A stretch of 64,000 nucleotides of DNA from Candidatus Doudnabacteria bacterium RIFCSPHIGHO2_12_FULL_48_16 (lineage in GTDB: Bacteria; Patescibacteriota; Doudnabacteria; UBA920; O2-02-FULL-48-8), in contig MFEY01000005.1 in the NCBI GenBank assembly GCA_001780035.1, positions 40,354 through 104,353 on the forward strand. Reading direction: 5' to 3'. Made by a program: the position numbers and the translations under genes. Below are positions 2,056 to 64,000 of the stretch, one piece after another. Within the stretch, counting starts at the first letter, position 1, and each line of letters begins with the position of its first letter. The notes under the pieces were generated by a model that saw only the letters and a list, made by a program, of their open reading frames with translations, was not told the origin of the DNA and made no database searches.

Positions 2056-2508
2056 CTAGCAGAGGATCATCCCCGACCATTCGGTGGATTGGACGACCAC
2101 TTGGTCCTGGTTCACGATCTCGGCCGCAATCTTGACCTTGCGTTTGCCGAGCCGTCGGTAGACCTTCTGCTCCTTGAGCATGAGACGCAGCGCAATGCTG
2201 TCCCCGGGGTAGACGGGAGCCAGGAAGTCACACAGCATCTGCGTGAAGAATGAGCCGTCGGTGAGGCCCAGCTCGTAAGCTATACCCATGAGCTGCGCAA
2301 TGCACAGGACGCCGGGCGCGACGCGGTTGCGAAAGTCTTGCGCGCGGGCGTACTCGTCGCTGGTGTGCATTCTGTTTCGATCGCCATGCTCGGCGACGAA
2401 ACGATCAATTTTGGCCTCGTCAATCGTGACAAAATGGCTTTCGATCACATCGCCGACCTCGTCGAGGCCGCTGACACGCTGAATCTCCGTGGTGCTCGGT
2501 GTCCGCAT
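2056..2508 (-). CDS. MaoC-like (R)-specific enoyl-CoA hydratase / hot-dog fold dehydratase
   Basis: MHTSDEYA resembles the MaoC IHTD motif, and the protein is hot-dog sized. Confidence 0.65.
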   Translation of the reverse strand: MRTPSTTEIQRVSGLDEVGDVIESHFVTIDEAKIDRFVAEHGDRNRMHTSDEYARAQDFRNRVAPGVLCIAQLMGIAYELGLTDGSFFTQMLCDFLAPVYPGDSIALRLMLKEQKVYRRLGKRKVKIAAEIVNQDQVVVQSTEWSGMILC

Positions 2509-2580
2509 AAAGCCCTCCTTAATAAGGCTGGCGAGATTGGTAAACGGAAAAACAAAAATCCAATGGCATAAGTATAAATT

Positions 2581-2610
2581 AAAAGCCCCTCTGGTTCAAG
2601 AGGGGCTTTT
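2581..2610 (-). terminator. intrinsic terminator downstream of hppA
   Basis: Perfect 12-bp stem aaaagcccctct/agaggggctttt with a 6-nt loop and a flanking T-run. Confidence 0.6.
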
Positions 2611-2623
2611 AATGTTGCGTTTG

Positions 2624-4621
2624 TTACACCAAGAAACTGACTATTAACAAGGCAACAATGTTGATAATCTTGATCATGGGGTTGATGGCCGGGCCGGCAG
2701 TGTCTTTGTATGGGTCGCCGACCGTATCGCCGGTTATCGCGGCCTGATGGGCTAAGGATTTTTTGCCGCCGTAATTGCCTTCTTCAATGAATTTTTTGGC
2801 ATTGTCCCAAGCGGCGCCGCCTGAAGTCATGGAGATGGCGACAAACAAACCGGTAATGATGGAACCGACCAAAACTCCGCCCAGAGCCTTAACGCCCAAG
2901 AAGGGAATGAAGCCGACGGCAATCGGGACCATAACCGGCAAGAGGGCCGGAATGATCATTTCTTTGATCGCGGCTTTGGTCACAATGTCGACGGCTCGGC
3001 CGTAATCCGGTTTGGCCGTGCCTTCCATGATTCCGGGAATTTCGCGAAACTGGCGGCGGACTTCTTCGACCACGGCATGGCCGGCGCGGCCCACGGCCTG
3101 CATGGCCATGGAGCCGAATAGGTAGGGGAGCAAAGCGCCAATCATTAATCCGGCCAAGACTTTGATATCTGAAAGGTCAAATGCCATTGGGTGCCCTAGG
3201 CCCTTGAGTTCTTCCGTATAAGAGGCAAACAAGACGACGGCGGCCAATCCAGCCGAAGCGATGGCATAACCCTTGGTTACGGCTTTGGTCGTATTGCCGA
3301 CTGCGTCGAGTGCATCGGTGTGCTCACGAACTTCTTGCGGCAGCCCGGACATTTCGGCAATGCCGCCGGCGTTGTCCGTAATCGGGCCGAACGCATCAAT
3401 GGCCACGATTATGCCGGCCATCGAAAGCATGGAGACCACGGCAATGGCCGAGCCGTAAAGGCCCATGTAGTGATAAGAAACCATAATGCCGCCGATGATA
3501 ACCAGAACCGGCAGGGCGGTGGATTGCATGGAGACAGCCAGCCCGGTGATGATGTTGGTGCCATGGCCGGTGGTTGAAGCCTCGGCGATTGATTGCACGG
3601 GCCGGTATTGTTTGGAAGTGTAGTATTCCGTGATCACCACCATGGCAGCGGTCACCACCAAGCCCACGAAGGAAGCGTAAAGCAAGCCGGTGCCGAAGAA
3701 GGGAATAAACAAGCTTTTGGTTACCCAGTAAAATCCAACCGCGGCCAGCAGGCCGGAAACGATCAGACCTTTATAGAGAGCGGCCATGATTCCCTTATTG
3801 ACCAAGCGGACGAAGAAGGTGCCGATGATCGAAGCGAAGATCGAAATGGCGCCCAAAGCGAGTGGGTAAAGAACGAAGGTCGTGTTGCCCTGGAATAAAA
3901 TATTGCCCAGGAGCATGGCGGCAATGGTCGTGACGGCATAAGTTTCAAACAGATCCGCCGCCATGCCGGCGCAGTCACCAACATTATCACCAACGTTATC
4001 GGCGATAACCGCTGGGTTTCTTGGATCATCCTCGGGAATGCCGGCTTCAATTTTGCCGACCAAATCTGCGCCGACATCGGCGCCCTTGGTAAAAATGCCG
4101 CCGCCGAGGCGAGCAAATACCGAAATCAAGCTGCCGCCGAAACCGAGGCCAATCAGCGCCTTGATGTCACCGGTAAAATGGTAAAAGAGTGAGACGGACA
4201 GTAGGCCCAAACCGACCACAAACATGCCAGTTACTGCACCGCCCCGAAAGGCCATGTCGAAAGCGGCGGTCAGGCCCTGTTTCGCGCCTTCAGCAGTGCG
4301 AACATTGGCCCGCACAGCCACAAACATTCCGATAAAGCCGGCTAAGGCCGAGGCCACGGCCCCGACAATAAACCCTTCGGCCGTATGGGCGCCGAGGAAT
4401 TTCCAGATGACAATGGCCAAAATTACAGCCACCACGCCCACGGTTTTGTATTGGCGGGCCAGATAGGCGGTAGCGCCTTCTTGGATGGCTTTGGCGATTT
4501 CCTGCATCTTTTCGTTGCCAGCCCCTTTCTGCATCACGAGCCAGGTTAGGATAAACCCATAAACAATCGCGGCCAATCCCGCGATTACGGCAAACCCGAT
4601 GATATTGGATTCGGATAACAT
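2624..4621 (-). CDS. hppA: membrane-bound H+/Na+-translocating pyrophosphatase
   Basis: 665 aa and polytopic. Motifs [26 protein letters not shown] and [13 protein letters not shown] are diagnostic of V-PPase. Confidence 0.95.
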
Positions 4622-53989: not shown

Positions 53990-55031
53990 TGACAGTTCCT
54001 TTGATAGTTGGGTTCAGATGGTCGTGATATCCGAATGTCCCGGTTTTGGTAAATGTAAAGCTGTAAGTTTGATTGCCCGACAGATCCGGTGACTCGAAGC
54101 CGGCCAAACCAGTATGGGTTGGGTGCGGATCCGATGCGACATGGTGATTCTTGCCGTCTTTGTTGAGCCAAACAACTGAATCACCTGCGCTCATCGTAAC
54201 GGTCGCCGGGTTAAATTTATCGTTTTCAATTGTCACGGTCACGGATTTCTTGGTTGACTGGCCGCCGGTGGGATTGGTGGGCGCGGGAGGGGTAACGGTT
54301 TTAAGCGACGTGATGGATGGTTCATGCAGCGGATTGGCAGCGGTATCGGCTTTGATTTGCTGGGTGCGGGAGTCGGTAAACTTTTTGCCCGGGGTCAGAG
54401 GGTCATAGCCATTTCGTATTTGATACGAATCGGTCCAGTCGTTCTGCTGGACAATCTCGCGCCGGTCCGTATATTTGAGAGTCGGTTCGGTCTTATAAAC
54501 ATGCAATTCATCCCCGTCTGCCAGGCCGTCCTTGTCCGAATCGGAATCTATCGGCGAGGTGCCGGTTTTGAATTCATCATAATTGCTCAGACCGTCGTTG
54601 TCGGGATCGGCATTGTCGCCGCAAATACTCTGATCGTCGCAGGCTTCTTTGTTAAAATATTGGGTCAGCCAAACCTTAGGCAGCCGGGTTGCAACCGCTT
54701 GCGGCTGATCACCGGGTTTATTGTCAGTTTTTTTCGCCCCCAAGAAATAATACAAACCAAAGCCAATTAAGCCTATGACTATGATTATTCCGCCAATCAG
54801 CAAAATATTGCGGTGCGAGTTCGGATCTGATTCGGGAAGGGGCGGCATGGAGTTCAGGCCCATATCGCCAATCGGGGCCTTAGGCGGCATACCGGATGGA
54901 GACCGTGGCGGAGGCGGCGGCATCGGTGACGAGAAGTTTGTATTTTTTTCCGGGTGGTTTAAATCCTGCGGCATGACTTGAAAGGTCAGGTCCGGCGAGG
55001 TTGCGGGGGCGTTGGGCGCATGGGGCTCCAT
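53979..55031 (-). CDS. membrane-anchored cupredoxin-domain protein with TSP3-like Ca-binding repeats
   Basis: Pro-rich N-terminus, a TM helix, DxDxDGxxDxxE repeats, and a C-terminal cupredoxin with an H...C...H...M-like pattern (HHVASDPHPTHTG...GYHDHLNPTIKGTV). Confidence 0.55.
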   Translation of the reverse strand: MEPHAPNAPATSPDLTFQVMPQDLNHPEKNTNFSSPMPPPPPRSPSGMPPKAPIGDMGLNSMPPLPESDPNSHRNILLIGGIIIVIGLIGFGLYYFLGAKKTDNKPGDQPQAVATRLPKVWLTQYFNKEACDDQSICGDNADPDNDGLSNYDEFKTGTSPIDSDSDKDGLADGDELHVYKTEPTLKYTDRREIVQQNDWTDSYQIRNGYDPLTPGKKFTDSRTQQIKADTAANPLHEPSITSLKTVTPPAPTNPTGGQSTKKSVTVTIENDKFNPATVTMSAGDSVVWLNKDGKNHHVASDPHPTHTGLAGFESPDLSGNQTYSFTFTKTGTFGYHDHLNPTIKGTVIVK

Positions 55032-55036
55032 AAAAT

Positions 55037-55411
55037 TTAACCGTTCTTAGTTATAAGATAAGATTCCAAAAATACGAAAACGAGAATCAGAAACGAGGTA
55101 TTGATCCAGGAAAACAGGCCGTGACTGGACAAAAGCAGGGAAAAAATTACGATCAGGCTGAGCCACAGGCTTTGGCGCAAGGCGGTGGCGAAATACAAAT
55201 GCTGGAATTCGCGCTGGCCCAGCAGGCGTCGGATGTAAAAATTAACCAGCGTCAGAGTGCTGAGGCAAAAACAGGCCAGAACCAGGTAAAACAGCAGAAT
55301 CGTCCAGGCCCCGGGCACACGAAGGAGCATCAAAGTCATCAGGCTCGCCAGAGAAATCAGCGCGATGACCAGGAGCGCTCGCTGAGTTGGGTTGAATTTA
55401 TTATACCACAT
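55037..55411 (-). CDS. hypothetical membrane protein
   Basis: Start trimmed to MWYNKFNP. Four TM helices. Confidence 0.4.
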   Translation of the reverse strand: MWYNKFNPTQRALLVIALISLASLMTLMLLRVPGAWTILLFYLVLACFCLSTLTLVNFYIRRLLGQREFQHLYFATALRQSLWLSLIVIFSLLLSSHGLFSWINTSFLILVFVFLESYLITKNG

Positions 55412-58370
55412 ATTGGCGGTATCGACACTCTTTGGCGTGCTGAGTCCGGCGGTCGGCTTCCAGGAAATTTCCAGTCTGCGTAGTTTCAATAATTTCCGCA
55501 ATTGTTTTGAGCAGCCGGGTTTTAATTTCGCCGATTTCCGTGGCCGTGCCCAAAAATTCACCGGAATCATCCAGACTTTCCAGGAACCAGTAACTGAGGC
55601 TTTGGATTTTTTCTTTGAACTCCTCTTGTGCCGCCCACTGATAAATTAGCAATTGCTGCTTGTCGACCGACGAAAGTTTACCGCGCGCAGCGCCGGTTTT
55701 ATAGTCAATAATGCTGATAGAGCCGTCCGGATTCAGATCGCCCCGGTCGATTTTGCCGACAAACTTAAATTTATCGAGCCGGAGCTTGAAGGGCTTTTCC
55801 AAAAACTTCGGCAACTTCGGGTCATCGGAAAATTTCCTGAAAAAGTTATCCAAATATCTGATTCCGCGCTTGCGATATTCTTCCTTATTGATCTTGTCAG
55901 GAAACCAGTCATCGACCCAAGATTCGGCGTAATATTTTTCCAGCAATTCTTTTTTAGGTAATTCAACCTGGCCGGTTTTTTTTGACCCAAACAGATCCGG
56001 TTGCACTAGTGTGTTAATCTGAACCAGGTGTTTGAGATATTTTTCCAAGGTTTTGTGAATCGTAATGCCGAAAGACAATTGCGCTTCGCCCGGCAGTGGC
56101 AGATGATAAACGTATTTGAATTGATACTCGAGCGGGCAGTGGAGAAAACACGAAATCTGGGAGAAAGAAAACGTGTCGGGAATGATCAGTTTGGTTTTGA
56201 GGCCCAGGAGCGGCGGTTGCTTGGTAAAAAACACTTCACCGGCGGGCGGCGCCTTCTTGATTTTTTCCTCGAGGCCCAGCTCGACCAGAAATCGGGACGG
56301 TTTTTTGTTGGTCGTGCCGCCGTAATCATCAGCCCAAGTCAGAAACAAAAACCGCTTGGCGCGCGTAGCCGCCACATAAAACAGACGGCGTTCCTCCATC
56401 AAATGCGCATCCCCTTCCGGCAAAATTTCCTTGACCAACGGCGGCGGAATCTCGATTTGTTCGGATCGGGCGCGCGACGGGAACCGCTGATCCACCATAT
56501 TGACCACAAAGACGCAGCCAAACTCCAATCCCTTGGAAGAGTGCACGGTCATGATCCGGACCGCTTCCGGCCCGGCATCCGGGTTAAATGCCAGCTCGCC
56601 CTGGTCGCCCGCTTCCATTTCCAGACGGATCTGGGCCATAAACCCTTTGAGCGATCGGTCGGTATTCTCTTCCTCATATTTTTGCGCTTTGCGGTAAAAT
56701 TGCTCCAAGAGCGAGCGGTTCTCTACGTTCGCGGCAGAGTCGGCGATTAAATTTTTAGTCCATTCCAGATCATGGAGGACATTCACCAGCAGTTCAGCCA
56801 CAGGCAGGTCGCGGCTCGCAGCCGCATGCTTGGCCAGGAGCCGAAGCAGATCCTGCGCCTTGAGGTTGTGGCTGTCCTTGACCGCTTCATACAAGGAAAC
56901 CGCCTTGCGCCTGGCAGTTTGCGATAAGAAAATCAGTTCCTCGTCCGGAATTTTAAATTTTGGCAAATTGAACACGCGAAACAGATTTTCACTTTCATGA
57001 TAATTATCCAGGAGCCGCAGGTAAGCCAGAATGTCTAAAATCAGGGGTTTTTTGTAAAGGCCACGGTTGGCTACAAACATATATGGCAGGCCCCGCCGCG
57101 ACAATTCGGCAATAAAGGCCTCGGCCGAATCATTGGCCCGCACCAGAATGGCAAAATCATTAAAATTTAATTGCTCACTTTGGGCCAACTCAATGATTTT
57201 ATCCGCGACCTGGCGGGCTTCCTCGTAAACACTGCCGGCATGCAGAACCTCGATCTTGCCGGACAGGCTGGTGCCGGCAGTCAGTTTTTTGGAAATTTTA
57301 AGCTTAGCTTCCAGACGCTCGGGATTGTTCTGTTGGATAAAACCGTAAGCCAAATCCAAAATCTTTTGGGTTGAGCGGTAATTCTCGGTCAGCGTCACTT
57401 CCTTGGTCCTAGGGAAATCTTCCTGGAATTTTAAAATATTGGAAATGGAAGCTCCGCGGAATTTATAAATCGACTGGTCATCGTCACCGACCACGGTAAT
57501 GTTGTTTTCCGGCAAAGCCAGTATTTTGACCAGATGATATTGGGCCAGGTCCGTGTCCTGAAATTCATCGACCAAAATATATTTAAATTTTTTCTGATAG
57601 AGTTCGAGGATCTTGGGCCTGGTGCGAAAAAGCTTCAGGGCATAGTTAATCAGATCCCCAAAATCCAGATGGCCCTCATCCAGCAGGAGTTTTTGATATT
57701 TATGATAAGCATTCGCCACTTCCAAAATCCTGGCCACTTCAGCTGCGTCAATCTGCAATCCTGAACTTGCTTCAGGATCTGTCTTTTTCTTCCGGGCTTT
57801 CTTTTTAATTTCAGCGCTATCTGAATTTAACCGCAGCCCTTCCGCGTATTTTAAATAATCATCCGGCCTGATTTCCTCACCCTTGGCCTTGTTAAAGTGC
57901 CGGAGCAGGGCGTGAATGAATTTATTGGGATTGCCCACGGGCTTATAATAATCCAAATCAAAATCATACAGGTGTTTTTTGATCAGCATCCAAGCTTGGG
58001 TGTCGGTGATTACCTTGAAATCGCCCGGCAGCCCGATATCGAGGGCGTGTTGGGACAAAATTTTCTGGGCAAAGGCGTGAAAAGTGGAAATTTGAATATC
58101 GGAATAGCCAAGTGGCATCAGCATGTCGACCCGCTCTTCCATTTCGTTGGCTGCTTTTTCGGTAAAGGTTAGGGCCAAAATTTCTTCGGGCTTGGCCAAG
58201 CCCTGCTCGATCAGCCAGACAATGCGCCTAGTTAGAACCGTAGTTTTGCCCGTGCCGGCCCCGGCTATGATCAAAAGCGGACCTTGGCCAAACGTCACGG
58301 CTTTACTTTGGTCTTTATTTAAGCCATTTAAAGTTTTGGAATCAGTTTGTGTTTTAGTTGCGGCCTTCAT
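55401..58370 (-). CDS. UvrD/PcrA-type ATP-dependent DNA helicase with C-terminal PD-(D/E)xK nuclease domain
   Basis: AGAGTGKTTVL is the Walker A motif, with UvrD motifs throughout. The C-terminal ...IDRGDLNPDGSISIIDYKTG... is a RecB-like nuclease fold. Confidence 0.9.
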   Translation of the reverse strand: MKAATKTQTDSKTLNGLNKDQSKAVTFGQGPLLIIAGAGTGKTTVLTRRIVWLIEQGLAKPEEILALTFTEKAANEMEERVDMLMPLGYSDIQISTFHAFAQKILSQHALDIGLPGDFKVITDTQAWMLIKKHLYDFDLDYYKPVGNPNKFIHALLRHFNKAKGEEIRPDDYLKYAEGLRLNSDSAEIKKKARKKKTDPEASSGLQIDAAEVARILEVANAYHKYQKLLLDEGHLDFGDLINYALKLFRTRPKILELYQKKFKYILVDEFQDTDLAQYHLVKILALPENNITVVGDDDQSIYKFRGASISNILKFQEDFPRTKEVTLTENYRSTQKILDLAYGFIQQNNPERLEAKLKISKKLTAGTSLSGKIEVLHAGSVYEEARQVADKIIELAQSEQLNFNDFAILVRANDSAEAFIAELSRRGLPYMFVANRGLYKKPLILDILAYLRLLDNYHESENLFRVFNLPKFKIPDEELIFLSQTARRKAVSLYEAVKDSHNLKAQDLLRLLAKHAAASRDLPVAELLVNVLHDLEWTKNLIADSAANVENRSLLEQFYRKAQKYEEENTDRSLKGFMAQIRLEMEAGDQGELAFNPDAGPEAVRIMTVHSSKGLEFGCVFVVNMVDQRFPSRARSEQIEIPPPLVKEILPEGDAHLMEERRLFYVAATRAKRFLFLTWADDYGGTTNKKPSRFLVELGLEEKIKKAPPAGEVFFTKQPPLLGLKTKLIIPDTFSFSQISCFLHCPLEYQFKYVYHLPLPGEAQLSFGITIHKTLEKYLKHLVQINTLVQPDLFGSKKTGQVELPKKELLEKYYAESWVDDWFPDKINKEEYRKRGIRYLDNFFRKFSDDPKLPKFLEKPFKLRLDKFKFVGKIDRGDLNPDGSISIIDYKTGAARGKLSSVDKQQLLIYQWAAQEEFKEKIQSLSYWFLESLDDSGEFLGTATEIGEIKTRLLKTIAEIIETTQTGNFLEADRRTQHAKECRYRQYVV

Positions 58371-58379
58371 GTGTTTATT

Positions 58380-59060
58380 ATAACATTTTTGGTAAATAAA
58401 AAGAGGCCCCAGAATGGCCTAAAAACGACGACGGGGAAGGATGAGTTAGCTTCTTCCTTCCCCGAGACAAAGACGAGTTCTCCTCCCAATAAATTTGGTG
58501 GCTGGGTTATGGCACAGGTCCAGCCGATCGTTCGTTAAGTATGCGAGGACCGTGCGTCGCCGCCCACTCAACTTCCAATCACCCCTGCTTTTTCGGCAGA
58601 CACACCCTCAAGTAGGAAAGAAGGTTTGGGCCACAGTCGCCAGACTGTGACGGTCGTCATACCATCGCCTCAACTCCGGCCCAGGAAGATTGGCCGGCAA
58701 GACGCGGAATAGGACTCCGCGCGGCATGGTTTGCTTCTTCAGTCGATCCTATGTCTGCGGAATTACCGCGGGATGCTAACCTCCGAGTGGAGGAAGCTCA
58801 CTGGGCCTTACCGCCACCGCTGAAGGATTGTCAGATTATCGACCTGTCTAGTTCAGGCTCTGACATATTTGGCGCTATCGCACCACACGCCTCTTTTCGG
58901 CCCTCAACTCCAGGAATCGATATCCGGAAGCGAATAGGCTCTGGATCAAGAAGTAACCTTGCGCAGGTAACTATTATAATTTCTTACGGTTGTGTCGTCA
59001 AATAAAAAGGCTAGGGATTCCAGTGGAACCCCTAGCCCGAATAGAGTCTGACCGCAATGT
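58380..59060. other. GC-rich ~0.65-kb ORF-poor segment between uvrD-like gene and purH-like gene
   Basis: Visibly high GC with no convincing ORF. I could not classify it as tmRNA or RNase P by motif. Confidence 0.3.
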
Positions 59061-59066
59061 CGCGAG

Positions 59067-60779
59067 TCAGTGCTTGCAGAACATCCGGAACATCTCGTCC
59101 GGACCCATGACCACGTTGACGCGGCGCTTCCGGCCCCGGCACAGCGTGCGGAAGGCCTTGTCGTTGAGCGAACCCGACGTAGCGAAGATCGCGCCCACAC
59201 CGGCCCTGATGAGCTTTCTGGGTCCATCGTTGAACGGGAAGAAGCTGTCGCTGACTGCGACGGAGCCCCTGATGTTGTGTCCGCAGCGGCGCGCACCATT
59301 CACCGCATGCTCGCAGGCCACGACCCGGGAGTTCTGGCACAAGCCCAGTCCCAGCATCATGCCGTTCTTGGTGATCACGATTGTGTTGCTATTGGCCGCG
59401 CCGCAGATGGCGAGGCCAAGCAGCATGTCCATGCGCTGCCGCTTGGTCAGCCGGCCAAGCTTCGTCAGATGTGGGTCGTTCAGGTTGAAAACCTGATCGC
59501 CCGGCCCTTGCCGAAGGAATTCGTCCGCCTCCAACTGCCGGAAGCGCTTGGCCACGCTCAGCTCGGTTGTGCCATAGCTGAAGCTGGAACTCACCATCAT
59601 CCGGCACCGGTTGTTGACCCGGCGGAGCTGTGCGACCGCACAATCGGTGACTGTCGGCGCCCACACCGCGTCAATCGGTCGCTTCTGCTTGCCCGTGAGG
59701 TAGGTGCGCAGCAGCGCGGCGGCCTCGTCATCGATGACGAAGTTGGTCATGACCGTGCCGCCGAACAAGGCGCCCGGATTGCCGGCGACCATGTTCCGAA
59801 TGGCGCGAAGCATGCCCGCGCCAGTATCGAAGTCAGCGATGCCCACACCGCACGGATTGCCGTGTTTGAGTCCGACGGCAATCGCGGGAATCGACAGCCC
59901 GTTCTTGCGGTAGAAGTTCTCGATGCGGGCAATCAGTCGACGACCGCCGTCAGCGTCCGTATAGTTGATGTATCCGGGTTCGCTTCCTTCCTTGCGCCGG
60001 AACGTGGACAGTGCTCCCTTGGCTGCGCGATCCTTGGAACCGAACCGGCGCATCAAGTCAGCGCCGCCCATCCAGCGATTCTCCGCGTAGCCCAACTTCT
60101 GGGCGCGCTCGAGGACAAGCACCGAATAGTCGCCGCCGCTTAAACGTTCGACCAGCGGGGCATAGTAGGCCAGGTTGTTGGCCAGGGCTTTGGCGATGCT
60201 GCGAGTAACAAACTCTTCTTCATTCGGGCGGCCAGCACGGAGCCAGTTAATGGTTTCCTGCCGGTCCTCCGGGGTGGAAACCACGATGCGTCCGCCCTTG
60301 CTGGCGGCCGTAGCCTGTGTCGGCCCGCCGACATCTATCGCTTCGATGATCGAGGCGATAGTGGCGTCAGGCCGTTCGAGCTCGGCATGCAGGGCGTAGT
60401 AATCAACGCACACGAGAGAGATTCTCACCATCCCCAGCGCTTCCAGCTGGTCAGCCATTGCCGTGGTGGCAAGAAGGACGCCGTGGATCTCAGCATGCTG
60501 GCCGGCAATCTGGCTGGCCCAATGGATGTTCTGTTCGGGAATGCGCTCCTGTTCGGGCTTCGCATTGTTGGCTGCCGTCAGCCGGCGAATCAGCGACGTC
60601 TGACGGAACTCCTCGACGCTGGTGACTGCGATGTCATGCTCCTTGAGGTAGCGGTAGGTCCCGCCGGATGAGATGATGCTAAAACCCAGTTCGACGAGGT
60701 TTCTGGCAAACTGATCAATCCCGTCTTTCACGCTGACGGAAATCAACGCATACAGCAAACTTGAAGTCATGTCTGTCAC
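59067..60779 (-). CDS. PurH-like bifunctional AICAR transformylase/IMP cyclohydrolase homolog (divergent, high GC)
   Basis: ALISVSVKDGI...SSGGT is the MGS-like IMPCHase N-terminus. GLKHGNPCGVGIA, LFGGTVMTNF, LGLGLCQNSRV and SDSFFPFNDG match AICARFT motifs. GC is much higher than the rest of the window. Confidence 0.55.
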   Translation of the reverse strand: MTDMTSSLLYALISVSVKDGIDQFARNLVELGFSIISSGGTYRYLKEHDIAVTSVEEFRQTSLIRRLTAANNAKPEQERIPEQNIHWASQIAGQHAEIHGVLLATTAMADQLEALGMVRISLVCVDYYALHAELERPDATIASIIEAIDVGGPTQATAASKGGRIVVSTPEDRQETINWLRAGRPNEEEFVTRSIAKALANNLAYYAPLVERLSGGDYSVLVLERAQKLGYAENRWMGGADLMRRFGSKDRAAKGALSTFRRKEGSEPGYINYTDADGGRRLIARIENFYRKNGLSIPAIAVGLKHGNPCGVGIADFDTGAGMLRAIRNMVAGNPGALFGGTVMTNFVIDDEAAALLRTYLTGKQKRPIDAVWAPTVTDCAVAQLRRVNNRCRMMVSSSFSYGTTELSVAKRFRQLEADEFLRQGPGDQVFNLNDPHLTKLGRLTKRQRMDMLLGLAICGAANSNTIVITKNGMMLGLGLCQNSRVVACEHAVNGARRCGHNIRGSVAVSDSFFPFNDGPRKLIRAGVGAIFATSGSLNDKAFRTLCRGRKRRVNVVMGPDEMFRMFCKH

Positions 60780-60939
60780 TCCCCCTTGAAAATCTAAAAG
60801 CTAAGCCTACTTAGCTTAGCCCCTATTAGCAACATACTAGGCGATTATCGATATATTGGCAAATAAAAACGAGGGTAACTCTAGGCAAGCGTCTGCGTGA
60901 AGCAGAACTTATCTAAAGTTACCCAAGCGGGCGGCGCCG

Positions 60940-61233
60940 CTAGTCGAGGTCGATGAATCCGAGCGGTTCGGCTGGCGTCGTGAGCGCCGACGGCTCGCCG
61001 TGAATGGCGACTTCGCTCGAGATGTCCGCGGCTGTGAGCGCTTGGGAACGAGCCCCGAATTCACCCACGTCGGCGCCGATTGTGGTCGATCCCCAGCCCT
61101 CCACCCGACGATCGTCCGTCGGATAGCTTATTGTGGTTGAGTCAAAACCAAATGGCCTCAATGTGTCCCCCTTAGTGAAATGTTTGCCCGAGCTTATTTT
61201 GTATATCCTGCCACGGAGACGACTCTCTGTCAA
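60940..61233 (-). CDS. hypothetical protein (GC-rich island)
   Basis: 97-aa ORF with no motif recognised. Its start overlaps a terminator-like hairpin. Confidence 0.25.
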   Translation of the reverse strand: MTESRLRGRIYKISSGKHFTKGDTLRPFGFDSTTISYPTDDRRVEGWGSTTIGADVGEFGARSQALTAADISSEVAIHGEPSALTTPAEPLGFIDLD

Positions 61234-61257
61234 CCCCGCCGCTCGCGAGAGGCAGGG

Positions 61258-61653
61258 TCAATATTCCAGTTTGACTGCCCGGTGGGCCGCCTTGTAGATT
61301 TGATCCAGGTAGTAATCCTGGTCAACAGGGTGATTTACCGGCCGGCCTTTGCGGTCAGTGGTGGCGTCGCGCAGCCAGATGACAGTTTGGCCGCCAATGA
61401 CGATAAACTCCAGGGATTCTCCCAGGTCCCGGATGCTGACAGTAATCGTCTCGGTGAGCGAGCGGCCCTGAGCCACCCGCCGGTAGCGCAGAATCGAGAC
61501 GTCGTTGGTAAACACCGAGTCCGTGGATTCTGTTGCCCGCTGCGGCTCCAGGGCGCTGCCCCAGCAAATCGCTGTCAGCGCGCGCTCGCGCGTACAGCCC
61601 CGGTAAAACAACGAACGCAACAAGCGAACCAAAGAAAGCATAAGCCTCTCCAA
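61258..61653 (-). CDS. hypothetical protein (GC-rich island), possible secreted
   Basis: 131-aa ORF with a hydrophobic N-terminus. A hairpin at 61227-61261 follows its stop. Confidence 0.3.
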   Translation of the reverse strand: MERLMLSLVRLLRSLFYRGCTRERALTAICWGSALEPQRATESTDSVFTNDVSILRYRRVAQGRSLTETITVSIRDLGESLEFIVIGGQTVIWLRDATTDRKGRPVNHPVDQDYYLDQIYKAAHRAVKLEY

Positions 61654-61723
61654 AATATAGCACCCAACACTAAAACCGAATGAATCGGTTTTAAGGTTCG
61701 GTGCTTATTTTGATAGGAATTAT

Positions 61724-61799
61724 GGTGCGCCTGGTGCGAATCGAACGCACGGCCTTTCCCTTCGGAGGGGAACGCTCTATCCACTGAGCTACAAGCGCC
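61724..61799 (-). tRNA. tRNA-Arg (anticodon CCG)
   Basis: Hand-folded. Acceptor gcgcttg/caggcgc (one G-U), D-arm gctc-agtggata-gagc, anticodon stem ttccc/gggaa with loop ctCCGaa, T-arm gtgcg-ttcgatt-cgcac, and an encoded CCA. Confidence 0.8.
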
Positions 61800-62674
61800 T
61801 ATATTAAAAATAAAACCAAGGAACCAAGGATAAAAATTGTTCCACTCCACATCCGCACAGTTATTTGTTCTTTATATTTTATACGGCTTAAGAAATACGC
61901 AGCTGGGATCGTCAATGTCCCCAGCATGGCGAACGTGGTCACGGGTAGCTGGTATATTAACCAGGAGAGTAAAAGTGCGGAAGTCGCCATACCAATCACC
62001 ATGGCGAGCCCGGTGTAGGTGCGGAAGCAACGGAATAGCTCTACGACCGGGTTTCGGTGTAAGGGCCAGATACTAATAATTATCCATATTAAGCTCCATC
62101 CGATCAAGTCCCCAATCAACCGGCCGGAAAGAAAAGTAAAATAATTAGGCGTATGAAAAGTAGCGAGCTTGTAGAACACAGTGGCTAAACCTGAAAAGAT
62201 TATCGAAGCGATCATAAATAATACTCCCCGGTCCCAAACTAAGTCTACGCGCGATAGTTTCTGCGGCCATACAAAGAACCCCACCCCTACAATAGCCAGT
62301 CCGAGTGCAGCCATTTGCATCGGCAGCAAGCGCTCACCGATCACGAAGATAGCTCCCAGACTGCTAGTCACAAACCCAAGCTTGCCGAGGATTTGAGCGG
62401 CAAAAAACTTACTTTCCACCAGACCCCAAATATTCAGCGTCAGTGCGGCTGCCGCCATAACTACCATGGCAAACCAGAATACATAAAAATACGGATCAGG
62501 GGGCGGTACAAAGAGTCCAGCGGCCAGTAAAACCGCAATTACGATCGGATGACCCGCGAGCGTAGGCGCATGGATAATCGTCAGTGAAGAAATTCCATCT
62601 TGGAAAAGTTTTTTTTTCAGCGTATCCCAATATGGCAGCATTAAATTGTAAATGATCGTAAGAAGAATCAACAT
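61799..62674 (-). CDS. polytopic membrane protein
   Basis: 291 aa with eight or more TM helices. Family not recognised. Confidence 0.5.
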   Translation of the reverse strand: MLILLTIIYNLMLPYWDTLKKKLFQDGISSLTIIHAPTLAGHPIVIAVLLAAGLFVPPPDPYFYVFWFAMVVMAAAALTLNIWGLVESKFFAAQILGKLGFVTSSLGAIFVIGERLLPMQMAALGLAIVGVGFFVWPQKLSRVDLVWDRGVLFMIASIIFSGLATVFYKLATFHTPNYFTFLSGRLIGDLIGWSLIWIIISIWPLHRNPVVELFRCFRTYTGLAMVIGMATSALLLSWLIYQLPVTTFAMLGTLTIPAAYFLSRIKYKEQITVRMWSGTIFILGSLVLFLI

Positions 62675-62678
62675 TGAA

Positions 62679-63193
62679 TTAGCGTCGAGAATTCCCTTTC
62701 CGGATCGGCATCATGTATTTCCGGGGATCAGTGTCTAGGTCAAGGTAAGAATCAACCAGTTCGCGCATTTTAGAAGATGTTGATTTGCCAAAAGAAACTA
62801 ATTCTACTCGGACACCTAAAACTTGTAAGTATTCTAGAAGAGGGATATAGTCGCCGTCCCCAGAGGCTAAAACTACCACATCGAGTTTCGGGATGAGCTA
62901 AACAATATCCATAACGATTCCGACATCCCAGTCCCCTTTTTAGCACCCCCGTAAAACGTCTGGAGTTCCTTGAGCTTTACTTCAAAGCCCGCTTTGCGCA
63001 AGGCGTCGAAGAAAGTTCCTTCTTCGGGCATATCGGCTTTGATGCCGTAAGCTATCGCTCGCACCATAGGGCGGTCGCCCACGGCGTCCTTCAAGACATT
63101 GTTAAAATTTACGCGGGAATTGTAAACATTTCTCGCCGTATAATAAAGATTCTGCACATCTACGAATAACCCAACTCTCTGCTCTGCTTTCAT
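62679..63193 (-). pseudogene. NYN/LabA-like domain gene disrupted by frameshift plus in-frame stop
   Basis: The upstream ORF has LFVDVQNLYY...RAIAYG. The downstream ORF has VVVLASGDGDYIPL..LGVRVELVSF. The connecting frame GDWDVGIVMDIV* is broken at a C4T5 homopolymer run and a TAG. Confidence 0.6.
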
Positions 63194-63289
63194 GTGTTTT
63201 CCTTTGTCATTCCGGACGCGATCCGGAATCTAAACAATAATTAATATTTAAAGATAAACTGGATCCTGAAACAAGTTCAGGATGACAGC

Positions 63290-64000
63290 CTAAAGAAGTT
63301 TATCCAGCGGCGGCTCAGGTAACTTCTCAGCTTCGACATCCAATTGCAAATTCGAGGCGTTCACGATCTGGCCGCGCAATTTAACGTAACCGTCAATCAC
63401 TGTCGCCATACTGTTATTCGTATTCTTGACGTGATTGGCCATGGTATCTAAACCCTTGCCGAACTTATCACTCTCTTGCTTGATGCCATTAATCATAGCC
63501 AGAACTTGCTGGGCCGCTTTGTTGATCTGTTGGCCGCGGAGAGAAACCAAAAACGTTTGCAGGGTCAGATATAAAGTATTCGGCCCAACCATGACAACTT
63601 TTTTATCTCGCGCATAGCTGCAGGTCGGTAAATCTTCCGCGACTTCCAGATATATTCCTTCGCTTGGGATAAACATCAAGGCAAAATCATAAGTGCCTTC
63701 CTGCGGCAAGATATATTTCTTATGGATTTCATCCACGCGCTTTTTGACGTCTTTTAGAAAAAGTTTTTTTTGCTCTTCAATTGATTCGTCAGTTTTCGCT
63801 TCCTTATATAGTCGGTAATTCTCCATGCTGAATTTGCTGTCGATCGGTAGGAGTAATTCCCCGACTTTGACAGCGGCATCGACCACTTCGCCGTTTTTGA
63901 ACCGATACTGAAATTTGGTAAACTCCTTGGGAAAAACCTGATTGAGCATATTCTCCAGCACTTCCTCGCCAAAGTTCCCGCGCATTTTGGGTGACGCCAA
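63290..64000 (-). CDS. rmuC: DNA recombination protein RmuC, C-terminal part (gene continues beyond window)
   Basis: ...KFSMENYRLY...YDFALMFIPSEGIY... is RmuC family. The ORF is open to the window edge. Confidence 0.75.
   Translation of the reverse strand: MASPKMRGNFGEEVLENMLNQVFPKEFTKFQYRFKNGEVVDAAVKVGELLLPIDSKFSMENYRLYKEAKTDESIEEQKKLFLKDVKKRVDEIHKKYILPQEGTYDFALMFIPSEGIYLEVAEDLPTCSYARDKKVVMVGPNTLYLTLQTFLVSLRGQQINKAAQQVLAMINGIKQESDKFGKGLDTMANHVKNTNNSMATVIDGYVKLRGQIVNASNLQLDVEAEKLPEPPLDKLL

Follow-up and report, generated by a model that had tools for sequence, protein, structure and literature searches.

A window of 64,000 nucleotides (nt) from a Candidatus Doudnabacteria contig was analysed around the interval between a gene for a UvrD-like helicase (uvrD) and a tRNA-Arg(CCG) gene, in which a GC-rich segment encodes a divergent homologue of PurH, the AICAR transformylase/IMP cyclohydrolase (AICAR, aminoimidazole carboxamide ribonucleotide; IMP, inosine monophosphate). 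We consider it likely that this segment is a genuine, horizontally acquired islet of about 3.25 kb in the Doudnabacteria chromosome, and that the derived PurH it carries most likely still makes IMP.

The composition of the segment sets it apart from its surroundings. Per kilobase, GC content is 0.39-0.56 throughout the window except at 59,001-61,000, where it reaches 0.58-0.62. At 200-nt resolution it steps up near 58,400 and down near 61,650, with values of about 0.39-0.45 at 58,300-58,400, 0.54-0.665 at 58,400-61,600 and 0.42-0.49 at 61,650-61,900. The GC content of 58,400-61,640 is 0.585, against a mean of 0.489 (standard deviation 0.019, maximum 0.550) for the other 3-kb windows (z = 5.0), and its GC-corrected tetranucleotide usage correlates with that of the rest of the window at r = 0.59, whereas non-overlapping windows give 0.83-0.95. 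The excess amounts to 10-13 GC points and extends over two orphan open reading frames (ORFs) and 0.55 kb of non-coding DNA as well as the PurH-like gene. The first-pass annotation of this DNA had described a sharp shift to high GC between the uvrD-like gene and tRNA-Arg(CCG), and both statistics bear this out, showing that composition is not uniform along the window; the divergent PurH-like gene, the ORFs of 97 and 131 amino acids (aa) and the ORF-poor stretch that it listed were all found at about the places given. The extent of the island was roughly right, its edges being revised here to about 58,405 and about 61,650. The latter lies past the AT-rich terminator hairpin of the tRNA (61,659-61,705), and the former is the point where homology to the uvrD promoter of a relative, locus L101, resumes. 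All units of the islet are read from the minus strand.

A UvrD protein scan of metagenome contigs yielded 80 related loci, and the UvrD orthologues of sister genomes were 70-72% identical to that of the window. The islet is flanked by EamA, NYN and RmuC genes on one side and by the UvrD and cupredoxin genes on the other. In L101 (UvrD 70%, RmuC 88% and NYN 93% identical to the window) the order is RmuC-NYN-tRNA-Arg(CCG), 363 nt, uvrD-orf177-cupredoxin, and in L106 (UvrD 53% identical) it is RmuC-NYN-tRNA-Arg(CCG), 585 nt, uvrD. By blastn, the window and L101 become similar again only at the T-run and promoter that immediately precede uvrD (34 nt at 85% identity), indicating that the whole tRNA-to-promoter interval is variable, with 3.3 kb here and 0.35-0.55 kb in L101 and L106. 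In another relative (L102), 4.5 kb of ordinary genes separate tRNA-Arg(CCG) from uvrD. Horizontal acquisition had been one of the origins proposed for the region, and it is supported by the composition, by the empty sites in L101 and L106, and by the codon usage that the 131-aa ORF (ORF131) shares with the PurH-like gene and that is foreign to the host.

The loci nearest to the window are L096-L098 and L181 (UvrD 72% identical, host GC about 0.39, range 0.36-0.42); they have GC-rich DNA (0.55, range 0.50-0.58) of their own upstream of uvrD, at the same site. It encodes a PurH of 540 aa (L097 2,050-3,672) that is 28% identical to the PurH-like protein of the window, 42-47% identical to the ordinary PurH proteins that were fetched and 53-56% identical to its best database matches, and that reads KHLCACG in place of KHxNPCG. 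On these comparisons the sister PurH is to be regarded as a canonical-type xenologue, not as an orthologue of the window's gene. It is preceded by two small ORFs (87 and 120 aa) that match no family. Farther upstream, L097 1,205-1,252 holds a fragment of tRNA-Arg(CCG) that consists of its last 43 nt (anticodon through CCA end) and has an unrelated 5' side; beyond this fragment there is a Replic_Relax gene (L097 718-2, minus strand; Pfam 1.1e-25). Site-specific integration into a tRNA gene usually leaves behind such a displaced 3' half; therefore, this tRNA was used by a mobile element in that lineage. Every contig of the sister species stops within or just past its island (L097 1-3,754, and likewise L096, L098 and L181). 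Both species occur in one JGI metagenome (Ga0209343 contigs). Because the sister species carries a different GC-rich purH island at the same place, the tRNA-Arg/uvrD site behaves as a hot spot for foreign DNA.

The PurH-like gene (59,067-60,779, minus strand; 567 aa from the ATG at 60,770, or 570 aa from the GTG at 60,779) encodes an N-terminal MGS-like/IMP-cyclohydrolase domain (Pfam MGS, 8e-11, residues 21-154) and a C-terminal AICAR-transformylase domain (AICARFT_IMPCHas, 2.7e-30, residues 165-494) in one chain. Its scores fall short of the NCBIfam equivalog cut-offs (226 vs 402 bits for NF002049, 179 vs 528 bits for TIGR00355). PurH chains of the PDB match at 1e-36 to 1e-15, the alignment with 4EHI being full-length (residues 6-541). 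An AlphaFold2 model built from an alignment of its relatives reached a predicted local distance difference test score (pLDDT) of 91.4 and a predicted template modelling (TM) score of 0.88, with low confidence in a single insert only, and Foldseek matched it to PurH of M. tuberculosis, C. jejuni and T. maritima (E 1e-30 to 4e-38, TM 0.66-0.84; superposition on bacterial PurH structures, TM 0.73-0.84), as well as to the PurH of the Methanosarcina acetivorans 50S dimer (PDB 9ou7). The protein is best read as a predicted AICAR transformylase/IMP cyclohydrolase, functional now or until recently.

A search of 5.8 billion proteins recovered about 60 members of the same clade (E 1e-110 to 1e-44, 28-41% identity), with ordinary PurH proteins trailing at 1e-40 and weaker. 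The nearest taxa, which the first-pass annotation had left to be identified, form a divergent clade found mainly in genomes of the candidate phyla radiation (CPR), the closest of its members being 39-41% identical; its named members come from Patescibacteria (Paceibacterota, Nomurabacteria, Buchananbacteria and Parcubacteria), and relatives on genome contigs include Kaiserbacteria, Harrisonbacteria and Saccharibacteria. In an alignment of 56 clade sequences, 26 of the 26 invariant residues are kept in the window's protein. The residues and motifs kept are K302-H303 in KHGNPCG (302-308), Y125, D146, K158, N462, R482 and SDSFFPF (507-513), of which K302, H303 and D508 are invariant in the clade; which residues of the transformylase are catalytic we take from studies of human and avian ATIC. 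The clade retains KHGNPCG, GQQDRV, SNSNT and SDSFFPF, and has the consensus SVYNK and HRVVTLHP where ordinary PurH has SVSDK and GRVKTLHP, a clade-wide change of Lys to Val/Ala. The window's protein reads SVSVK, and ASQIAGQHA where GRVKTLHP is expected, so that the cyclohydrolase pocket motifs are missing from it. Together with the clade members P0002 and P0003 it forms a derived branch, with an insert of 25-45 residues in the cyclohydrolase domain and genes that stand 6-13 GC points above their flanks. Literature searches found no paper on this divergent clade or on CPR PurH. What is new here, within a general kind that is known, is the clade itself and the fact that sister species captured two unrelated purH genes in parallel at a single site.

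Gene neighbourhoods bear on what the clade does. P0003 (locus L088) is followed by a fused gene for succinyl-AICAR (SAICAR) synthase and aminoimidazole ribonucleotide (AIR) carboxylase (PurC-PurE, 499 aa; L088 2,034-3,533). An adenylosuccinate lyase gene (purB) lies about 1 kb away in L014, a Lyase_1 gene is adjacent in L012, and a phosphoribosyltransferase gene adjoins the PurH-like gene in L009. In the Saccharimonadales locus L016 (7,215-9,011) a PurO-type IMP cyclohydrolase immediately precedes a transformylase-only match (residues 222-567). A role of the clade in purine synthesis is suggested because purB, purC-purE, purO and phosphoribosyltransferase genes are its neighbours in several genomes. 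Elsewhere, P0012 is placed between groEL and a two-component system, and in one Paceibacteria-like lineage the PurH-like gene, at host-like GC, comes after rplJ-rplL and looks vertically inherited. L016 and L088 also point to partial late-purine pathways in CPR-type genomes.

A chimeric assembly, in which a fragment from a GC-rich organism had been misjoined into a Doudnabacteria contig, was a further origin offered by the first-pass annotation; the abrupt change in composition would fit it, as would the N-gap of the NCBI assembly inside the islet (about 58,523-58,641) and the contigs of other assemblies that end within the ORF-free stretch, at 58,525-58,532, 58,904 and 58,986-58,995 (five contigs). 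The fragments that end there have the sequence of the window as far as they reach, and their ends are due to fragmentation, not to an alternative allele; a coverage dip, strong hairpins or population variants could be the cause of the clustered breaks. A hypothetical protein from a Candidatus Doudnabacteria metagenome-assembled genome (MAG) of Rifle groundwater has the same sequence as the PurH-like protein, and matches to the window include contig MFFH01000001 (GCA_001777785.1) along with many other assemblies. At least 23 contigs encode the protein, and the six neighbourhoods displayed all have the order EamA-ORF127-PurH-like-UvrD (ORF127 being ORF131 read from its ATG). Over 4.8 kb around the islet, five assemblies are 100% identical, and the 13 mismatches of a sixth all fall within the NYN gene, beyond the islet. 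The identical UvrD was found on 24 contigs, and the islet is present in every one that extends upstream. The junctions are common to about two dozen contigs from ENA, NCBI and JGI assemblies, that is, from different assemblers and samples, and contigs of 83-444 kb read straight across; the orphan proteins of the islet are recorded in four MAGs, and promoter/terminator modules of the host type (TTTTTATTTG...) are interleaved with the islet genes. Because its junctions are identical in many assemblies, the islet is real, and the chimera, refuted by these shared junctions and by the proteins of the four MAGs, can be given practically no weight.

A native region, whose high GC would simply follow from the codons and amino acids that a conserved enzyme gene uses, is also very improbable, if not to the same degree. 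In 10 of the 10 CPR loci of the initial set, and again in those added later, the PurH-like gene did exceed its flanks in GC, mostly by 1-7 points, and the gene linked to rplJ-rplL is stable in its lineage and apparently vertical. The larger excess of the islet, however, reaches the orphan ORFs and the non-coding DNA, GC-corrected tetranucleotide usage is aberrant as well, the flanking genes recur in relatives whose site lacks genes of this kind, and the purH that the sister species has there is non-orthologous. A different question is whether the PurH-like protein has changed its function, towards another substrate or a non-enzymatic role, for example one associated with the ribosome, which we consider unlikely. 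Such a change would be in keeping with the clade-wide replacement of the GRVKTLHP Lys by Val/Ala and of SVSDK by SVYNK, with the disordered insert in the cyclohydrolase domain and the scores under the equivalog cut-offs, and with the position of this copy and P0002 as by far the most derived members of the clade (49 and 58 deviations, median 5). The archaeal PurH is moreover part of a 50S-dimerising complex (PDB 9ou7), PurH with aEF2 being a ribosome-dimerising factor in Methanosarcina acetivorans (PMC12605026), and in one CPR lineage the gene is directly after rplJ-rplL. Against it, the protein has an intact transformylase Lys-His and intact motifs at the folate/AICAR site, the clade shows no variation at the cyclohydrolase Tyr, Asp and Lys, several clade members adjoin purB, purC-purE, purO or phosphoribosyltransferase genes, the rplJ-rplL linkage is confined to one lineage, and the uptake of a canonical purH by the sister species at the same site suggests selection for the ordinary activity. 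A ribosome role for the clade as a whole was rejected, as the rplJ-rplL synteny is limited to that lineage and purine neighbours are at least as frequent. A new use of a PurH-fold enzyme, as the first-pass annotation had also suggested, therefore finds no support in a clade that lies beside purine genes, although this copy is among its two most derived members. Slightly less probable again is a narrower version, in which the fast-evolving branch of this protein, P0002 and P0003, with its remodelled cyclohydrolase pocket and inserted loop, would have taken on a new substrate or a non-enzymatic function in a host-dependent bacterium, much as PurH was recruited to ribosome hibernation in Methanosarcina, its gene perhaps being captured repeatedly with a companion non-coding transcript at the tRNA-Arg hot spot.

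Several observations weigh against a horizontally acquired islet with an active PurH. The HRV.TLHP motif of the clade is lost from the window's protein, a disordered insert of about 25 aa lies in its cyclohydrolase pocket, and 49 of the 164 strongly conserved clade columns deviate, against a clade median of 5, with only P0002 (58) worse; the activity of this copy may be altered or lost. All sampled strains are identical, and hence give no signal of selection. Most CPR PurH-like genes are 1-7 GC points above their flanks, with 12 points in one truncated locus, and part of the GC excess could be intrinsic to the PurH-like gene. The donor was not identified: tetranucleotide correlation of the islet with about 180 loci indicated no meaningful nearest lineage, and the nearest PurH-like relatives are just 39-41% identical. 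No integrase, recombinase or transposase was found in or near the islet (Pfam on its ORFs, on six frames of the ORF-free stretch and on its neighbours), and neither a second copy of the tRNA 3' end (up to 3 mismatches) nor long flanking direct repeats were found in the window.

With these points taken into account, acquisition by horizontal transfer would have proceeded by entry of foreign DNA into an intergenic site between tRNA-Arg(CCG) and uvrD that is short (0.36-0.59 kb) in relatives, probably by recombination at the hot spot, the mobility genes having been lost or never present. Its cargo would comprise an orphan gene (127/131 aa) with a doubtful 73/97-aa ORF, a PurH-like gene with a promoter and terminator of its own, and a stretch of about 0.55 kb that shows no coding signal, all presumably expressed from the predicted promoters. 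The PurH-like protein would most likely carry out the last two steps to IMP (AICAR to formyl-AICAR, FAICAR, and on to IMP), and a purine-dependent symbiont would thereby convert salvaged or partly made AICAR/ZMP to IMP.

Known systems resemble the islet in part. Like tRNA-adjacent integrase islands, it is placed just downstream of a tRNA gene, starting about 75 nt past it, has atypical GC and oligonucleotide usage, carries metabolic cargo along with orphans and is absent in relatives, and the sister genome has a duplicated tRNA 3' half and Replic_Relax at the same tRNA. Unlike them, it measures only 3.3 kb, has no integrase or recombinase and no flanking direct repeat, and begins past the tRNA terminator and not inside the tRNA. 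The classical island integration context proposed for it therefore holds as regards the adjacent tRNA and the absence from relatives, but not as regards an integrase or a duplicated tRNA end, both of which are missing from the window; the islet resembles a remnant, or a cassette that recombination has exchanged between the conserved tRNA and the promoter of uvrD. With bifunctional PurH (TIGR00355, NF002049; PDB 3ZZM, 4EHI, 1ZCZ) the protein shares the two-domain architecture, the fold, Lys-His, SDSFFPF and Tyr/Asp/Lys; it differs in being 20-25% identical to the solved structures and below the cut-offs, with a motif lost and an insert of about 25 residues. The archaeal-style split between PurO and a transformylase-only PurH, as in L016, is similar in that the transformylase domain of the clade occurs in a purine context, but the window's protein is a fused two-domain chain with no purO nearby. 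As for the methanogen ribosome dimerization factor (a PurH2-aEF2 heterotetramer on the 50S subunit; PDB 9ou7; PMC12605026), the PurH fold is common to both and a second role is possible; that factor, however, pairs an ordinary archaeal PurH with aEF2, while only gene order, and that in a single different CPR lineage, ties the protein of the window to ribosomes. The islet is thus neither a PurH equivalog by score nor a classical integrase island by content, and resembles both in working.

Origin from a known mobile element, phage or plasmid was rejected. The whole islet had no blastn match among 50,697 phage and 72,556 plasmid records, a PADLOC scan returned nothing, and in PHROGs the MGS domain matched one family of unknown function and nothing else; on viral contigs, PurH was represented by distant genes of the giant-virus type only (22-26% identity). 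L106 shares the RmuC-NYN-tRNA-Arg-uvrD order and, at about 0.61, its genome is unusually GC-rich among CPR bacteria; its tetranucleotide match to the islet is no better than that of the host.

CPR bacteria are thought to be host-dependent for nucleotides. Here, one species took a PurH-type gene and its sister independently a different purH, at the same tRNA-Arg/uvrD site, and this parallel acquisition suggests selection to complete the last steps of IMP synthesis. The parallel also marks a small recombination hot spot in genomes that are otherwise streamlined. Curated family libraries lack an entry for the divergent, mainly CPR clade of PurH, in which the cyclohydrolase pocket is altered. Current understanding is not overturned by these results; the picture of CPR metabolism as a patchwork assembled by gene transfer is refined.

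ORF131 (61,258-61,653, minus strand; 127 aa from the ATG at 61,641, after GGAGAGG) is probably a real gene of the same foreign origin as the PurH-like gene, with no function assigned, because its codon usage and frame-specific signal match those of that gene. GC at the three codon positions is 0.59/0.46/0.72 in ORF131 and 0.60/0.46/0.77 in the PurH-like gene, compared with 0.55/0.33/0.57 in uvrD and 0.55/0.54/0.65 in the 97-aa ORF (ORF97). A codon model trained on the PurH-like gene gave ORF131 +0.27 bits/codon in its own frame and negative values in the other five, held-out thirds of the PurH-like gene giving 0.21-0.38; the signal peaks in the 5' two-thirds of the ORF. In phmmer against 1.84 billion cluster representatives ORF131 had no real homologue, the only matches being two spurious summed ones to cadherin repeats; it is a singleton cluster in a collection of 15 billion proteins, and its single-sequence AlphaFold2 model (pLDDT 55) is uninformative. 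ORF97 (60,940-61,233, minus strand) is doubtful as a gene. It scores +0.06 bits/codon, a weak signal, and has a 73-aa version, from the TTG at 61,161, with a strong ribosome-binding site (AAGGGGGA); its cluster consists of just two start-codon variants of one sequence. Neither ORF matched Pfam, PADLOC, PHROGs or NCBIfam, and no homologues of either were present near other PurH-like genes in the loci examined. A similarity of ORF97 to a 69-aa ORF of L101 (SE[VT]AIHGE) was not significant (E = 0.07 and 0.012, single pairwise comparisons).

The two ORFs lie in one frame, separated by a TGA (61,258-61,260) and 8 codons, and could be a gene broken by a nonsense mutation, two genes, or the site of a recoding signal. 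A word-indexed search with the joined sequence (ORF131-X-ORF97) found nothing, not even the catalogued 127- and 73-aa parts of the query itself, and is weak evidence accordingly. A GC-rich hairpin (CCCUGCC...GGCGGGG; 61,233-61,260) stands right after the TGA of ORF131.

The gap without ORFs between the PurH-like gene and uvrD covers 696 nt (58,371-59,066), and within it the GC-rich stretch of about 0.55 kb at 58,421-58,966 (minus strand), here named nc570, is bracketed by the best promoter match of the region and by tandem terminators. It could give rise to a non-coding transcript, or else be inert spacer DNA. Stops occur in all three minus-strand frames, and the codon model scores all six frames negatively and picks out no local coding patches. 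Decayed-gene status was rejected for this lack of patches and for the absence of any Pfam remnant in six-frame translations; a known RNA was rejected as well, given that Rfam 15 over 54,000-64,000 (E <= 1) matched only the tRNA meaningfully and had no match in nc570. No similar DNA was found in the phage and plasmid collections or in any of the roughly 180 fetched loci, and a conserved element upstream of uvrD was rejected on the lack of similarity to the spacers of L101, L106, L113, L152 and L160.

That nc570 is a structured non-coding RNA gene and not spacer or decayed DNA is a tentative proposal that we hold to be doubtful. An 11/12 promoter lies immediately upstream and tandem intrinsic terminators at the end, no frame has a coding signal or a protein-domain remnant, and the predicted fold of the minus strand beats all of 100 shuffles (z = -3.6, against -2.1 for the plus strand). 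The same layout recurs in L106, where a terminator, TTGACA-17-TAAAAT, about 470 nt without a convincing ORF and another terminator precede uvrD. On the other side, nc570 has neither an Rfam match nor similarity to the L106 and L101 spacers or the other fetched loci, its copies are all identical and so yield no covariation signal, promoter and terminator calls are consensus matches only, and a z of -3.6 for GC-rich DNA is suggestive, not decisive.

The remaining features can be followed along the minus strand. Promoters and terminators were predicted throughout from consensus matches only. The tRNA-Arg(CCG) gene (61,723-61,798; ARAGORN, Rfam tRNA 69 bits) is the conserved left anchor, and its probable terminator (61,659-61,705; inverted repeat I1) is a host-like, 21-bp AT-rich hairpin with a T-rich run. 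Downstream of the small ORFs, a terminator of their unit (60,873-60,924; I7), formed by a hairpin and the T-run TTTTTATTT, is followed by a promoter-like TTGCCA-17-TAGTAT for the PurH-like gene (60,834-60,862; consensus scan), by a small hairpin in the short 5' leader of that gene (60,798-60,817) and by the Shine-Dalgarno sequence AAGGGGGAG ahead of the ATG at 60,770. The stop codon of the PurH-like gene (59,067-59,069) precedes a putative intrinsic terminator (59,008-59,038; I11, terminator scan) with a 14-bp stem and again TTTTTATTT. Next comes the near-consensus sigma-70 promoter TTGACG-17-TATAAT (58,973-59,001), which points into nc570, and then the tandem terminators (58,432-58,464 and 58,404-58,420; I14, terminator scan), two hairpins each with a U-run. 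A motif that joins a terminator T-run to a -35 box, TTTTTATTTG(n)C, has three occurrences (repeat families D1 and D2).

The right-hand anchor is the host uvrD promoter (58,371-58,403), identified by the blastn match to L101. The host gene beyond it (55,401-58,370, minus strand, ATG at 58,370) encodes a UvrD/PcrA-type helicase of 989 aa fused to a PD-(D/E)XK nuclease (Pfam UvrD-helicase, UvrD_C and PD-(D/E)XK). TATAAT or CATAAT stands 6-9 nt ahead of the uvrD start in the window (58,371-58,383), in L101 (7,975-8,000) and in L106 (7,975-7,997); in the window, 7 nt separate the TATAAT from the ATG. The uvrD mRNAs may accordingly be leaderless or have very short leaders.

Other relatives have small insertions or ORFs at this place. 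In L100 (1-706), whose UvrD is 70% identical, the uvrD promoter region is present twice, with a gene of about 160 aa between the two copies. Imperfect direct repeats of some 28 nt (GTGTCCGATCGGACAG...GTACAT; about 66-93 and 630-657) flank this gene, an arrangement that resembles a small insertion cassette at this hot spot. Directly upstream of uvrD, the AT-rich CPR genomes of L101 (7,679-7,888), L113 (7,603-7,896) and L152 (about 1,640-1,880) have small ORFs of 69-98 aa that are rich in GC and have strong Shine-Dalgarno sequences; their local GC is 0.5-0.66 vs 0.30-0.40 for the genomes, and no sequence similarity was detected among them. Far from the islet, at 2,056-4,621 of the window, a second and milder bump in composition (GC 0.53-0.56, tetranucleotide r = 0.87) covers genes for an H+-translocating pyrophosphatase and a MaoC-like dehydratase.

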